IMG/VR virus record: IMGVR_UViG_3300047323_000675
From: a virus
Direction: 5' to 3' (one strand)
Length of the DNA: 64,000 nt
This document shows positions 5,964 to 57,879 of this stretch, one piece after another. Under the pieces are notes generated by a model that was given only the letters and a program-made list of their open reading frames with translations, did no database searches and was not told the DNA's origin. Numbering within the stretch: position 1 is the stretch's first letter; each line of letters starts with the position of its first letter. Position numbers and translations under genes: made by a program.

Positions 5964-6488
5964 TTGTTAAAATATAAGTACACTATTTGGGAATTAAAAA
6001 TGGAATATAAATTGGAAGATCTATCTATTCATCCTAAAATATTAGCAGAGAATAAATATAATAAATTTAATGATAGCACTAAAAGATATAACGAAGAATA
6101 TATGGAGTCATGGCAAAAAACCATTTATAACGATTATGGAAAAGCTTATTTCATAAATTTTAATTTTTATAATATGACTCATATTTATTCGCAACATAAG
6201 ATAAAAGGAAATCCATATTCTTGGGAAGCCGATTTACAGTTTAATTCACTTGATAATGATATGACAGTAAATATCAAAGTTTTTGGAACTCATCGTAATT
6301 TGCATTCTGTGGAAAATTTTTGTGAAAAAATGTTTAATCAAATGCAGTTTAAAAATTATGATTATTACAGTGATGAAGATGAGTATAAGCATAAAAAAGG
6401 TTTAGAAGTTATTAATGATGTAAATGAATTAGAAAAAGAACTGCCAAAATCAAATACTAAGAAAAAGAATACAAAAAGAAAAATTTAA
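5964..6488 (+). CDS. Hypothetical protein with basic C-terminal tail (likely ATG start at 6000)
   Basis: ORF followed by terminator; ends ELEKELPKSNTKKKNTKRKI. Confidence 0.75.
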   Translation: MLKYKYTIWELKMEYKLEDLSIHPKILAENKYNKFNDSTKRYNEEYMESWQKTIYNDYGKAYFINFNFYNMTHIYSQHKIKGNPYSWEADLQFNSLDNDMTVNIKVFGTHRNLHSVENFCEKMFNQMQFKNYDYYSDEDEYKHKKGLEVINDVNELEKELPKSNTKKKNTKRKI

Positions 6489-54079: not shown

Positions 54080-54110
54080 AAAAAGAAAAGCCTACATTTC
54101 TGTAGGCTTT
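54080..54110. terminator. Bidirectional intrinsic terminator closing the tRNA operon and the YegP-like gene
   Basis: AAAGCCTACA-tttc-TGTAGGCTTT with a U-tract on the minus strand. Confidence 0.8.
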
Positions 54111-54118
54111 GTCATCGT

Positions 54119-54346
54119 TTAAACCATTTGTTCTGCTTTAGCAGTATTAATATTGTCAACATGTTTTTTTATCCATCTCATGAAAAGAATTGCTTTGTCA
54201 TCTGCTCCGAAAGAAGCATCCCCTGTGTCTGATATTGGAACTGGAAACTCAAATCCGCACTCAGTTTTGTACCATAATTCACTTTGTTGATAGCGAATAA
54301 ATTGAACTCTTTTCCCGTTGTTGACCATCTCTTTTATGCTGCTCAT
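54119..54346 (-). CDS. Small hypothetical protein, last cistron of the tRNA operon
   Basis: AAGGAG RBS; LWYKTECGFEFPVPISD...KAILFMRWIKKH; same strand, directly downstream of the array. Confidence 0.8.
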   Translation of the reverse strand: MSSIKEMVNNGKRVQFIRYQQSELWYKTECGFEFPVPISDTGDASFGADDKAILFMRWIKKHVDNINTAKAEQMV

Positions 54347-54420: not shown

Positions 54421-54495
54421 TGGCATCGCGTACGAGAATCGAACTCGTATCATTTGGTTGAAGGCCAAATATTCTCACCATTAAACTAACGCGAT
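54421..54495 (-). tRNA. tRNA-Glu(TTC), atypical C33
   Basis: Cloverleaf ATCGCGT/ACGCGAT, anticodon arm TTTGG-CCTTCAA-CCAAA, T-loop TTCGATT, encoded CCA. Confidence 0.85.
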
Positions 54496-54507
54496 ATTAA
54501 ATCTATT

Positions 54508-54601
54508 AAGAGTTTGCGGAGTCGAACCGCTTCTCTGCCTGCAAGCAGCGCATGAAGCCGACTAGTGATTGCAGTCACCAATACGCACATGCTGAACTCT
54601 T
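54508..54601 (-). ncRNA. Aberrant tRNA-like element (GCA/Cys-like loop, very long variable region, no CCA)
   Basis: Acceptor AAGAGTT/AACTCTT, T-arm GCGG-TTCGACT-CCGC, GGTGA-CTGCAA-TCACT arm, ~30-nt variable insert, weak D-arm. Confidence 0.55.
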
Positions 54602-54606
54602 TAACT

Positions 54607-54682
54607 TGGTGTCTCTAGAGGGATTTGAACCCTACATCTCCGGTGGGATTACGCGGCGATTTAACCATTAATCTATAGAGAC
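54607..54682 (-). tRNA. Glu-family tRNA body with scrambled anticodon arm (anticodon undetermined)
   Basis: Acceptor GTCTCTA/TAGAGAC + ACCA; D- and T-arms resemble the neighbouring Glu tRNAs; anticodon region CCG-CGTAATCCCAC-CGG is non-canonical. Confidence 0.7.
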
Positions 54683-54688
54683 AAAACT

Positions 54689-54772
54689 TGGTGGATGAGG
54701 TTGGATTTGAACCAACGAACCCGAAGGAAATGATTTACAGTCATCGCGCTTTAGCCACTTGCATACTCATCC
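54689..54772 (-). tRNA. tRNA-Tyr(GTA)
   Basis: G1-C72, A73, loop CTGTAAA, long variable arm, CCA; identical to 55943..56026. Confidence 0.95.
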
Positions 54773-54798
54773 ATTAAAACTATTTACTGATTAAATCT

Positions 54799-54876
54799 TG
54801 GTATCCAGTATGGGGGTTGAACCCATTTTCTCGGATTGAGAATCCGATTTCCTAACCTACCGTAGAAGAACTGGAT
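54799..54876 (-). tRNA. tRNA-Glu(CTC)
   Basis: Arm TCGGA-TTCTCAA-TCCGA; acceptor ATCCAGT/ACTGGAT; CCA. Confidence 0.9.
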
Positions 54877-54900
54877 ATAGAACTATTTACTGCATAATTT

Positions 54901-54985
54901 TGGTGGATCAGGTAGGATTCGAACCTACTCATCCGAAGAAACGGGGTTACAGCCCATCACACCTCTCCAACTGTGTCGCTGATCC
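54901..54985 (-). tRNA. tRNA-Tyr(GTA)
   Basis: Arm ATGGG-CTGTAAC-CCCGT; long variable arm; CCA. Confidence 0.92.
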
Positions 54986-55020
54986 AAATTTAAAAATTCT
55001 TTCAAAAAAATACTTAAATT

Positions 55021-55102
55021 TGGTGGATGAGGTAGGGATCGAACCTACTTGCCGAAGCCACGGAGTTACAGTCCGCTGCCCTACCATTAGAGCATCTCAT
55101 CC
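55021..55102 (-). tRNA. tRNA-Tyr(GTA)
   Basis: Arm GCGGA-CTGTAAC-TCCGT; variable arm GGCTTCGGC; CCA. Confidence 0.93.
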
Positions 55103-55107
55103 AAAAA

Positions 55108-55216
55108 TTAAGTGTATTTGCGTAGACGGAAAATCCGTTCTTCGGGATGGGTTAAGGCTCGTAGCCCCGATTCTGCAAATCCCCATTTACTAGCCAGGAG
55201 ATAAACTCACACTTAA
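55108..55216. ncRNA. Structured non-tRNA element inside the tRNA array
   Basis: Closed by TTAAGTGT/ACACTTAA; internal ATTTGC/GCAAAT, ACGGA/TCCGT and GGCT/AGCC helices; GC-rich in an AT-rich context. Confidence 0.55.
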
Positions 55217-55235
55217 AAACTTTACTACTACAATT

Positions 55236-55310
55236 TGGTATCGTGTATGGGATTCGAACCCATGTCCAAGGAGTGAAAGTCCAAGTATCCTTCCAGTAGA
55301 TGAACACGAT
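55236..55310 (-). tRNA. tRNA-Glu(TTC), weak anticodon stem
   Basis: GGA-CTTTCAC-TCC with two T.T mismatches below; acceptor ATCGTGT/ACACGAT; CCA. Confidence 0.85.
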
Positions 55311-55336
55311 ATAAAACTATTTTTATTACTTAAAAT

Positions 55337-55414
55337 TGGTGTCCCCAACGGGATTTGAACCCGTGTTTTCGGATTGAAAGTCCGACGATCTCGACCAAAC
55401 TAATCTATGAGGAC
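55337..55414 (-). tRNA. tRNA-Glu(TTC)
   Basis: TCGGA-CTTTCAA-TCCGA; CCA. Confidence 0.92.
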
Positions 55415-55440
55415 GATGAAACTTTTTACTACTTTTAAAC

Positions 55441-55525
55441 TGGTGGAGATGGATGGATTTGAACCACCGCGCCTTTTGGAAACTGATTTACAGTCAGTCG
55501 CATTCGACCCCTCTGCCACATCTCC
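55441..55525 (-). tRNA. tRNA-Tyr(GTA)
   Basis: ACTGA-CTGTAAA-TCAGT; long variable arm; CCA. Confidence 0.93.
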
Positions 55526-55548
55526 ATTAAAACTTTTACTACTTAATT

Positions 55549-55625
55549 TGGCACACCCAACGAGGATTGAACTCGTATTTTCGGATTGAAAGTCCGATGT
55601 TCTCGACCAATTAAACTATGGGTGT
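55549..55625 (-). tRNA. tRNA-Glu(TTC)
   Basis: TCGGA-CTTTCAA-TCCGA; acceptor ACACCCA/TGGGTGT; GCCA. Confidence 0.92.
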
Positions 55626-55647
55626 AAAACTTTTTACTACATTATAT

Positions 55648-55723
55648 TGGAGCACCTAACGGGGATCGAACCCGTATTTTCAGATTGAAAGTCTGACTAT
55701 CTAACCAATTAATATATAGGTGC
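55648..55723 (-). tRNA. tRNA-Glu(TTC)
   Basis: TCAGA-CTTTCAA-TCTGA; acceptor GCACCTA/TAGGTGC; TCCA. Confidence 0.92.
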
Positions 55724-55729
55724 TTTGTT

Positions 55730-55805
55730 TGGTATGGGTAACGGGATTTGAACCCGTGTCTGCGGATTGAAAGTCCGCTGATCTATCCAACTAATCTATA
55801 CCCAT
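55730..55805 (-). tRNA. tRNA-Glu(TTC)
   Basis: GCGGA-CTTTCAA-TCCGC; acceptor ATGGGTA/TACCCAT; ACCA. Confidence 0.92.
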
Positions 55806-55853
55806 GTAAATATTTACAAATTTAAAAACTCTTTATTTAAAAGTGTTTAAATT

Positions 55854-55937
55854 TGGCGTTCCGTGGGGGATTCGAACCCCAGTCTTTCGACATCACCTTG
55901 AAAGGGTGAGGACGGTTGCCGGCCGTCAACACGGAAC
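55854..55937 (-). tRNA. tRNA-Glu(TTC) with an unusual long variable arm
   Basis: TCACC-CTTTCAA-GGTGA; variable hairpin GTC-GAAA-GAC; 5-bp D-stem GACGG/CCGTC; GCCA. Confidence 0.85.
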
Positions 55938-55942
55938 ATATT

Positions 55943-56026
55943 TGGTGGATGAGGTTGGATTTGAACCAACGAACCCGAAGGAAATGATTTACAGTCATCG
56001 CGCTTTAGCCACTTGCATACTCATCC
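55943..56026 (-). tRNA. tRNA-Tyr(GTA)
   Basis: Exact duplicate of 54689..54772. Confidence 0.95.
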
Positions 56027-56053
56027 ATATTCACAACATTTACTACTTTAATT

Positions 56054-56139
56054 TGGTGGGGCAGGTAGGAATCGAACCTACAAGCCGTAAGGCGACCGCT
56101 TTACAGGCGGCTGATTTCACCACACTTACCATCTACCCC
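56054..56139 (-). tRNA. tRNA-Tyr(GTA), first tRNA of the operon
   Basis: GCCGC-CTGTAAA-GCGGT; long variable arm; ACCA. Confidence 0.93.
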
Positions 56140-56163: not shown

Positions 56164-56179
56164 AATTTTTAAAGAACAA
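56164..56179 (-). promoter_or_regulatory. boxA antitermination signal (rrn-type)
   Basis: TTGTTCTTTAAAAATT on the minus strand, 25 nt before the first tRNA; matches the TGCTCTTTAACA-type consensus. Confidence 0.8.
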
Positions 56180-56188
56180 TACTACTCA

Positions 56189-56207
56189 TGTTGTCGTTTT
56201 GACAACA
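56189..56207 (-). promoter_or_regulatory. boxB-like hairpin preceding boxA
   Basis: TGTTGTC-AAAAC-GACAACA perfect 7-bp stem. Confidence 0.6.
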
Positions 56208-56210
56208 CTA

Positions 56211-56246
56211 CAAAAACAAAAAAGGCACCAATTTCTCGGTGCCTTT
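56211..56246 (-). terminator. Attenuator terminator (segments 3:4) between the leader ORF and the tRNA array
   Basis: AAAGGCACC-GAGAAATT-GGTGCCTTT followed by TTTGTTTTTG. Confidence 0.9.
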
Positions 56247-56380
56247 GATTTACTTCTTACTTACTTGTCAGAGTGAACTCAGTTAATATAAACTTGGGTT
56301 TCCTTGTTTACATTAACCTTTGCATCAACACTATCTGAACGAGCAAAAGTAAATGCGACACCGTTGGTGTTCATTTCCTC
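56237..56380 (-). promoter_or_regulatory. Attenuator RNA switch: 1:2 protector and 2:3 antiterminator
   Basis: 1:2 = GAG-G-AAATG-A-ACACC / GGTGT-CG-CATTT-A-CTT. 2:3 = CGGTGTC/GGCACCG, ATTTACTT/AAGTAAAT and TTGCT/AGTAA; it uses the terminator 5' arm. Confidence 0.8.
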
Positions 56381-56413
56381 TCGTTCATAATAATAAGTGT
56401 TCATGCGGTTCAT
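56279..56413 (-). CDS. Tyr/Glu-sensing leader peptide (44 aa)
   Basis: MNRMNTYYYEREEMNTNGVAFTFARSDSVDAKVNVNKETQVYIN*; codons TAT TAT TAT GAA CGA GAG GAA; GAGAGA RBS; lies between promoter and terminator. Confidence 0.85.
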   Translation of the reverse strand: MNRMNTYYYEREEMNTNGVAFTFARSDSVDAKVNVNKETQVYIN

Positions 56414-56460
56414 GTTATTTCTCTCAAATAAATAAGTTTGTCTAAATCTTCAATGTAATC

Positions 56461-56489
56461 ATTATGCCTCAGTTGCAATTCCGTGTCAA
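56461..56489 (-). promoter_or_regulatory. sigma70 promoter P2 of the leader/tRNA operon
   Basis: TTGACA-N17-CATAAT with an AT-rich upstream tract. Confidence 0.85.
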
Positions 56490-56568
56490 TAGGTTTCTTC
56501 AAAATATTTTTATTGTTTCAAAAAAACAACACATGACACTTGTTGCTCAACTGCATTCAATGAAGTGA

Positions 56569-56598
56569 ATTATATATTAAATTTCAATTAGGTGTCAA
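56569..56598 (-). promoter_or_regulatory. Candidate upstream sigma70 promoter P1
   Basis: TTGACA-N18-TATAAT about 110 bp upstream of P2. Confidence 0.6.
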
Positions 56599-56994: not shown

Positions 56995-57879
56995 ATGAAA
57001 ATCAAAGAAATATTAACCTCAGCAGAAGATAAGTCTGTGAACTTTATCTATGACAATTGGATAGAGGCTAGATTTGTAAGAAGAGAAGCTGATTACTTCA
57101 TTATTTATCTTTCATCGCATGATGGTTGTAATAAGGCATGTCGTTTCTGCCATTTAACTCAAACAAAACAAACTTCTTTCAATCGGGTAACAATAGAAGA
57201 ATATCTAATGCAAGCTGAAGATGTCTTGAATTACTACGACTCAATTAAAAATAACCAAGGTGCTGCAAAAAGGGTTAACTTTAATTTTATGGCTAGAGGA
57301 GAAGCCCTAGCTAACCAAGTTATTTTGGAGAATGCTAAAGAATTATTTTCTAGTTTGGAAAATTTAGCATTAAAAAGAGGTTTAAGTGCAAGATTTAATA
57401 TTTCAACAATTATGCCAATGGAAATAGAATCAAAAGATTTGGCTGATATTTTCAAGGATGTTACTCAAGATTATGGGATTTATTATTCACTATATAGTGT
57501 CGATGATAAATTTAGGAAGCGCTGGCTACCGAAAGCTTTAAATTATGAAGTAGCACTAAAAAAATTAGAAGAATTACAGCTAAAAAGAGGAGCAGATATT
57601 GCCTTCCATTGGGCATTTATTGAAGGTGAAAATGATAGTAAAGAAGATTTAGATGAATTAAAGAATGTCTTGTCTAATTACAACATTAAGGCCAAGTATA
57701 ATTTAGTAAGATATAATCCCTATAGTTCCAATCAAGGGAAAGAACCAACAGAGGATGTTTTGCAGTATAATTTTAATGAATTAAATGAATTTTTTAAAAG
57801 TCCTGCATCTAGAATTGTTCCTCGTGTTGGATTTGATGTTAAAGCCTCATGTGGGATGTTTGTAATCAATAATAATTGA
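56995..57879 (+). CDS. RlmN/Cfr-like radical SAM enzyme (divergent, lacks the resolving Cys)
   Basis: LSSHDGCNKACRFC, FMARGEAL (cf. MGMGEPL), IEGEND, NLVRYNP, C-terminal ASCG; Tyr at the RlmN C118-equivalent position. Confidence 0.8.
   Translation: MKIKEILTSAEDKSVNFIYDNWIEARFVRREADYFIIYLSSHDGCNKACRFCHLTQTKQTSFNRVTIEEYLMQAEDVLNYYDSIKNNQGAAKRVNFNFMARGEALANQVILENAKELFSSLENLALKRGLSARFNISTIMPMEIESKDLADIFKDVTQDYGIYYSLYSVDDKFRKRWLPKALNYEVALKKLEELQLKRGADIAFHWAFIEGENDSKEDLDELKNVLSNYNIKAKYNLVRYNPYSSNQGKEPTEDVLQYNFNELNEFFKSPASRIVPRVGFDVKASCGMFVINNN

Follow-up and report, generated by a model that had tools for sequence, protein, structure and literature searches.

On the minus strand of the window, by which we mean the whole stretch of 64,000 nucleotides that was analysed, we found a leader that is probably a ribosome-mediated, leader-peptide transcription attenuator whose regulatory codons match the tRNA genes under its control. 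This reading is based on computational and comparative evidence, without transcript data. The promoter, the Shine-Dalgarno sequence, a short ORF, an intrinsic terminator and the tRNA array follow one another in this order (Table 1). These sequence elements, their conservation, the alternative pairings of the RNA and the in-silico dependence of the pairings on the position of the ribosome are all direct observations. Leader-attenuated tRNA genes that are cognate to the sensed codons have not been described in the literature that we could search and this is the new part, the design itself being that of classical attenuation.

Table 1. Features of the leader and of the putative operon, in window coordinates.
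Feature	Position	Strand	Remarks
Promoter P1	56569-56598	-	TTGACA-N18-TATAAT, 12/12 consensus; kept in closer homologues
Promoter P2, taken to drive the leader	56461-56489	-	TTGACA-N17-CATAAT, 11/12 consensus
Shine-Dalgarno	56420-56425	-	GAGAGA, 6 nt 5' of ATG
Leader ORF	56279-56413	-	44 codons and stop, MNRMNTYYYEREEMNTNGVAF...; open frame kept in homologues
Regulatory codons (Y7-E13)	56375-56395	-	TAT TAT TAT GAA CGA GAG GAA
Full extended 1:2 hairpin	56327-56401	-	
Segment 1	56366-56387	-	5' arm of the 1:2 anti-antiterminator
Segment 2	56334-56363	-	CGGUGUC..AUUUACUU..UUGCU..UCAGA; partner is segment 1 or 3
Middle hairpin	56281-56318	-	13 pairs, between segments 2 and 3
Segment 3	56237-56272	-	UCUGA..AGUAA..AAGUAAAU..GGCACCG; partner is segment 2 or 4
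Intrinsic terminator	56211-56246 (stem 56221-56246)	-	11-pair stem, GAAA loop, then UUUUUUGUUUUUG
Segment 4	56221-56231	-	
Terminator U-run	56211-56220	-	
Hairpin and boxA-like element	56166-56206	-	Hairpin (56190-56206), then, 11 nt on, boxA-like UGUUCUUUAAAAA (56166-56178); 3' of the terminator
14 tRNA genes	54421-56139	-	6 Tyr(GTA), 7 Glu(TTC), 1 Glu(CTC); CCA encoded in all
Conserved 75-aa ORF	54119-54346	-	3' of the tRNA array
Second terminator	54087-54110	-	With the 75-aa ORF, closes the putative operon

An earlier note on this DNA had proposed a four-segment switch with the geometry of trpL, in which three helices compete. The three helices do exist and are mutually exclusive, segment 2 pairing with segment 1 or 3 and segment 3 with segment 2 or 4. 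The segments lie where they had been placed and extend slightly further, and all the pairings claimed between segments 2 and 3 (CGGUGUC/GGCACCG, AUUUACUU/AAGUAAAU, UUGCU/AGUAA and UCAGA/UCUGA) were found. The regulatory codons fall within the 5' arm of the 1:2 helix, those for Glu-Arg-Glu-Glu lying in the arm and the Tyr codons in its extension. Furthermore, the 2:3 helix takes up the 5' arm of the 3:4 terminator: GGCACCG belongs to both helices and, because it is the terminator 5' arm, 2:3 and 3:4 exclude each other. The size given for the 1:2 helix, about 13 bp, has to be corrected, as it has around 21 pairs in the core and around 30 with the extension.

Regarding the energies, the extended 1:2 hairpin of the window was calculated at -22.1 kcal/mol, the 2:3 duplex at -25.9 to -26.7 kcal/mol and the terminator at -16.0 kcal/mol. 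The whole leader RNA (56455-56205) folded at -79.3 kcal/mol, with z = -7.75 relative to 200 dinucleotide shuffles, and its minimum-energy fold was the terminated conformer, which consists of the extended 1:2 hairpin, the middle hairpin and the terminator. The 2:3 duplex was better than all the 1000 dinucleotide shuffles of segment 3 (z = -4.6), and the middle hairpin would shorten the loop that this duplex closes. A fifth pairing was considered as well, between the Shine-Dalgarno region and the UCUGA that lies upstream of segment 3; it is strong in the window and was rejected as it is not conserved.

A profile search of 1.8 billion proteins gave eight additional leader-peptide clusters, and through the peptide we obtained from metagenomes the DNA of 13 further distinct leaders (L001, L004, L006-L009, L012-L017 and L020). 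Together with the window, these made up the 14 DNA sequences that were aligned with MAFFT. All the trpL-like structural predictions of the earlier note hold in the window and in the 13 homologues. A TTGACA box with a -10 box around 17 nt downstream precedes the leader in each of the 14, and GAGAG or AGGA occupies the Shine-Dalgarno position in all homologues. The 2:3 duplex ranges from -16 to -29 kcal/mol across the 14 sequences and, in the seven that were tested against shuffles, z ranged from -3.0 to -6.6. The terminator stem, followed by a U-run, has -12 to -17 kcal/mol in 13 of the 14, and -7.7 in the variant L016. This L016 (5001-5260) is a natural variant of L015 in which GGCAACG replaces GGCACCG in the terminator 5' arm, a change that weakens the terminator (-7.7 versus -14.4 kcal/mol) and also the 2:3 duplex.

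The reading frame of the ORF is open in the 14 DNA homologues and in the eight further peptides. The ORF crosses segment 2 in all homologues and stops 23-41 nt 5' of the terminator arm, that is, inside the loop that 2:3 would close. One could suppose that the transcript of around 240 nt is mainly a stable small RNA, or a riboregulator that binds a protein or a ligand, and that it does not matter whether the ORF is translated. In favour of this, the z value of -7.75 indicates a very stable fold, a strong promoter with an efficient terminator would give an abundant short RNA, and folding of the complete transcript of the window predicts a paired Shine-Dalgarno sequence (P = 0.89). However, the start codon, the Shine-Dalgarno sequence and the reading frame are kept in all lineages, the insertions and deletions that can be placed in the ORF are whole codons, and the sequestration of the Shine-Dalgarno sequence is not conserved (0.19-0.89). 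The RNA has no Rfam match either: between 52000 and 58000, at E <= 1, the search returned no amino-acid leader family (Trp, His, Leu, Thr, Phe and others) and no match to the T-box covariance model, by model search only, and no family except tRNA gave a convincing match. We find it hardly credible that translation plays no part, and a trans-acting role of the terminated RNA would not exclude attenuation anyway.

The peptide motif YYYEREE is unchanged in 15 peptide clusters. Its seven codons are the same in all 14 DNA sequences, except for a synonymous GAA/GAG change at the last Glu, and GGUGUC follows this last Glu codon at a distance of 12-15 nt in all of them. Tyr and Glu together represent 12% of the residues in the ORFs of the window and, from this figure, we estimated by hand a chance of about 7e-4 of finding six Tyr or Glu among seven consecutive residues anywhere in 44 aa. 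The codon choice of the leader is suggestive as well, as CGA is rare in the ORFs of the window (1.5 per 1000) and GAG is the less used of the two Glu codons.

The tRNA genes that follow carry the same amino acids. All 14 assignable tRNAs of the window are Tyr or Glu, none of them being Arg, and arrays with Tyr and Glu only were found in L001 (15 genes), L004 (13), L006 (5), L009 (13), L012 and L013 (7 each) and L015 (5). The arrays of the two most distant lineages, L017 and L020, contain in addition a tRNA-Arg(ACG), located among the Tyr and Glu genes (L017:5473-5547 and L020:5523-5597). Every locus long enough to show it has the array after the terminator, with these specificities and no others. 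Since tRNA-Arg(ACG), the decoder of the CGA codon of the leader, is carried by the L017 and L020 arrays, the conserved Arg inside YYYEREE is explained, and the match of the sensed codons to the array tRNAs covers Tyr, Glu and, in these two lineages, Arg.

This exact match, including tRNA-Arg(ACG), speaks against YYYEREE being a nascent-peptide arrest motif, or against general translation stress (antibiotics, damaged ribosomes) throwing the switch instead of the tRNA supply. The motif is certainly invariant, Arg included, the residues N-T-x-G-V-x-F further along the peptide are conserved too, and translation inhibitors induce the tRNA array of Anabaena (PMC8421152). Nevertheless, the residues after EE are conserved because segment 2, that is, GGUGUC and the bases that follow it, encodes them, and therefore the RNA pairing accounts for them. 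We consider arrest or general stress an unlikely trigger.

The 14-sequence alignment allowed us to ask how well each conformer is kept. For the antiterminator core plus the proximal helix 94.3% of the cells are paired, against 32-44% when the partners are slid, and for the terminated conformer (1:2 plus 3:4) the figure is 92.1%, against 35-50%. Judged from the alignment, such a comparable retention of both conformers is what would be predicted for a switch. Compensatory changes were found in the proximal 2:3 helix (L012 and L017), from A-U through G-U to G-C and from U-A to A-U. Several more occur in L008: in the distal UCAGA/UCUGA helix a C-G pair became U-A, where the segment 2 change alters the peptide and the segment 3 change restores the pairing; in the terminator a compensatory change from G-C to A-U leaves 2:3 still paired; and the middle hairpin has another change from C-G to U-A. 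The cognate 2:3 duplex of L008 is 4 kcal/mol better than the non-cognate one. The L009 sequence at the position of the middle hairpin does not align and, by eye, is also able to form a hairpin. The covariation across homologues, for which the earlier note had called, fits both conformers and includes these compensatory changes, whereas its statistical support is weak: the three double-sided pairs observed in 2:3 were reached by 58 of 500 shuffles, and three double-sided pairs in the terminated conformer by 2 of 500. The reason is that there is almost no variation in the core, so that most pairs are uninformative.

Outside the part that overlaps the helices, the peptide behaves differently. Both of its ends differ freely between homologues, in sequence as well as in length, the total length being 31-47 aa, and only the stretch overlapping the RNA helices is fixed, which is the pattern typical of leader peptides. 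Such freedom is not easily reconciled with an ordinary small protein gene with its own terminator, the array being transcribed from a separate downstream promoter and the helices being incidental. Moreover, the 2:3 complementarity is far beyond chance and maintained by compensatory changes. The ORF does exceed classical leaders in length, and after the terminator there is a promoter-like TTGTCA-N18-TATTGT (9/12) at 56205-56176, but this candidate is weak and overlaps the conserved hairpin/boxA element. We hold this explanation to be very unlikely.

In order to follow the pairings along the ORF, we folded the nascent RNA codon by codon, moving the A site through the frame and keeping unpaired the 31 nt that the ribosome would cover. 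When the terminator was complete, it won at equilibrium at every ribosome position and therefore the switch must be kinetic. We then took as antiterminator probability the ensemble pairing of GGUGUC with GGCACC while segment 4 is not yet transcribed. In the window this probability was 0.00 without a ribosome; it was 0.40, 0.77, 0.64, 0.67, 0.95, 0.99 and 0.79 with the A site at codons 7 to 13, respectively, and 0.00 again from codon 14 through the stop. In the seven close sequences, the values were around 0 when the ribosome was absent and 0.40-1.00 while the A site lay within codons 7-13; at codon 14 four of the seven gave 0.00 and the others 0.12-0.81, and at codons 15-24 none exceeded 0.01. 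The antiterminator was also allowed at codons 2-5 in L007-L009 and at codons 26-31 in L004, L007 and L008. The distant homologues showed a broadly similar dependence on ribosome position, some of them allowing 2:3 again late in the ORF, and L017 was an exception in which 2:3 is favoured even without a ribosome while segment 4 is absent.

As a positive control we ran the same script on E. coli trpL, taken from NC_000913.3. With segment 4 absent, the upstream pairing of the terminator 5' arm had a probability of 0.08 when no ribosome was present, rose to 0.86-0.87 for an A site at Trp11/Arg12 and was back at 0.08 with the ribosome at the stop and, as in the window leader, the terminator wins at equilibrium when it is complete. 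The E. coli trpL profile was reproduced and therefore the folding procedure recovers known biology. In these models the window leader behaves like trpL, and more sharply. The claim that a ribosome stalled on the Tyr/Glu codons lets 2:3 form is in keeping with these foldings, in silico only.

We propose the following course of events, in which translation of the ORF, stalling, the kinetic choice of helix and the physiological signal are inferred. Transcription would start at the strong P2 and a ribosome would translate the leader. If Tyr-, Glu- and Arg(ACG)-tRNA are plentiful, the ribosome would run across segment 2 and 1:2 would re-form behind it; segment 3 would then be free to pair with segment 4, and the RNA polymerase would terminate at the U-run. 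Termination would likewise be expected without any translation. Should any of these tRNAs run short in its charged form, the ribosome would stall with the A site on codons 7-13, covering segment 1 and ending just short of segment 2, whose start is 12 nt past the last Glu codon. Segment 2 could then capture segment 3 as it emerges, taking up the terminator 5' arm, and the polymerase may continue past the boxA-like element, transcribing the tRNA array and perhaps the 75-aa gene as well.

The distance of the stop codon had been raised in the earlier note as a caveat, and it is real, as the ORF runs around 55 nt past segment 2. It is not fatal to the attenuation model. Since the ORF crosses segment 2 and stops before the terminator arm, an unstalled ribosome first occludes segment 2. 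For termination to occur when the tRNAs are plentiful, 1:2 has to form again or the coupling has to be tight. The 1:2 hairpin, local and very stable by calculation, can form again behind such a ribosome.

What the circuit would respond to can be inferred in part from its output. More tRNA cannot relieve amino-acid starvation and therefore the circuit makes sense only as a response to tRNA shortage, from which we infer that the signal is a shortage of the tRNAs themselves. In well-studied bacteria the wobble bases of Tyr-GUA, Glu-UUC and Arg-ICG tRNAs are modified, and tRNAs of these classes are targets of known anticodon nucleases. It is possible, and we offer it only as a tentative idea, that the switch is a sensor of tRNA damage, in which tRNAs depleted by a nuclease stall the ribosome and diversified replacement tRNAs are switched on. 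The depleted tRNAs would be Tyr-GUA, Glu-UUC and Arg-ICG, the nuclease would come from a competitor, a host or a defence system, and the 75-aa protein would be part of the response. If this were true, the array would be a chromosomal counterpart of phage tRNA-based counter-defence.

Compared with known systems, the window leader resembles trpL and the his, thr, leu and ilvGMEDA leaders in having a short ORF with clustered regulatory codons and an intrinsic terminator, and it shares with the trpL class the four RNA segments that form 1:2, 2:3 and 3:4, with a kinetic choice that we infer to be set by the position of the ribosome. Like ilvGMEDA, it senses tRNAs of more than one amino acid. Unlike the trpL class, however, it controls cognate tRNA genes and not genes for biosynthesis, transport or aminoacyl-tRNA synthetases; its ORF, of 31-47 codons among the homologues, exceeds theirs in length and stops shortly ahead of segment 3; there is an extra hairpin between segments 2 and 3; and a boxA-like element follows the terminator. 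The E. coli pheM-pheST operon is under leader-peptide attenuation, where cognate codons sense the charged tRNA and control the aminoacyl-tRNA synthetase. This is the closest system in logic, as both control a component of the decoding pathway that is sensed, although the product is the synthetase in pheM-pheST and the tRNA itself, in many diversified copies, in the window.

The closest system in biology is the trn operon of Anabaena sp. PCC 7120, also a conditional, supernumerary tRNA array, which comprises 23 functional tRNAs and whose expression is low and rises once translation is impaired (PMC8421152). The repressor TrcR controls it by binding to direct repeats at the promoter (PMC10272220). 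Therefore, the two arrays differ in that the Anabaena one has many specificities with TrcR acting at the promoter, whereas that of the window has only two to three specificities and a leader switch. The terms 'attenuat' and 'leader' are absent from the text of PMC8421152, and a full-text search of the literature found no account of leader-peptide attenuation of tRNA genes.

If the attenuation model is true, the speed of decoding at particular codons would feed back directly on the transcription of the tRNAs that read them, and the extra tRNAs would probably be made only when ribosomes slow on the Tyr, Glu or Arg codons of the leader. Bacteria, and not phages alone, would hold a conditional tRNA reserve under codon-specific control, and there would be a testable handle on the reason for supernumerary, diversified tRNA arrays. 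The leader would also be a compact natural sensor for the availability of individual tRNAs, and the oldest known RNA switch design would reach the translation apparatus itself.

Regarding the genomic setting, the leader peptide is encoded on a contig of 2.23 Mb and a close variant on one of 2.22 Mb. In the related loci the gene order is conserved and includes IF-3, CysS, many ankyrin genes and a protein of the 17-kDa antigen type. The setting thus seems to be chromosomal, in an AT-rich bacterium with abundant ankyrin genes, rather than that of a phage. No match to the leader was found in phage records, plasmid records gave generic tRNA matches only, and a pattern scan of GTDB species genomes did not find the leader. 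A pattern scan of metagenomes gave one duplicate of L001 and one chance match in GC-rich DNA, and nothing more. An RlmN/Cfr-like radical SAM gene (56995-57879, plus strand) lies divergent from the leader and has many homologues with 50-88% identity. It is linked to the tRNA array in the closest relative, L001, and unlinked in most relatives; two of the loci with RlmN-like relatives, L002 and L003, are without a tRNA array. Neither the RlmN-like neighbour nor the leader pattern was found in viral contigs.

Between the terminator and the array, 13 of the 14 homologues share the pattern [CT]G[CT]TCTTTA, and L012 and L020 read UGCUCUUUAAAAA. The UGUUCUUUAAAAA of the window resembles the boxA consensus of rrn operons. 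The element suggests Nus-type antitermination for polymerases that have passed the attenuator, without functional data. At the other end of the array, a protein of 73-75 aa is encoded in the window and in six other loci compared (65-84% identical), its gene being possibly co-transcribed with the array. It had no convincing match in Pfam (best E = 0.087, below the cut-off) and none in PADLOC, and its structural model was poor (pLDDT 62), with no informative match in PDB or Atlas.

The tRNA copies of the window array have diverged strongly. Among the Glu copies, almost all have an acceptor stem of their own, and A1 is the first base in several. A long variable arm is present in the Glu gene at 55854-55937. 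In the last Glu gene of the array (54421-54495) the anticodon loop is CCUUCAA, without U33, and in two Tyr genes it is CUGUAAC. A tRNA-like gene at 54610-54682 (minus strand) scored 46 bits against the Rfam tRNA model and was rejected by ARAGORN; it encodes CCA and has an irregular anticodon arm. We considered it as a decayed tRNA-Arg, which it is not clearly, and no assignment was possible. Relatives that share its 3' end occur in L001 (minus strand) and in L004 near 6008-6083. There is also a gap of around 130 nt between two tRNA genes (55108-55216, minus strand). According to an earlier reader, it contains a structured, GC-rich element other than a tRNA, and it has no Rfam match.

Finally, P1 lies around 110 nt upstream of P2 and, with the conserved stretch 3' of it, occupies 56490-56598 (minus strand); in this stretch there is a weak hairpin followed by U7. 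The motif CATTGAA is present after P1 and again after P2, a repetition that may point to promoter duplication or to a short transcript of its own.
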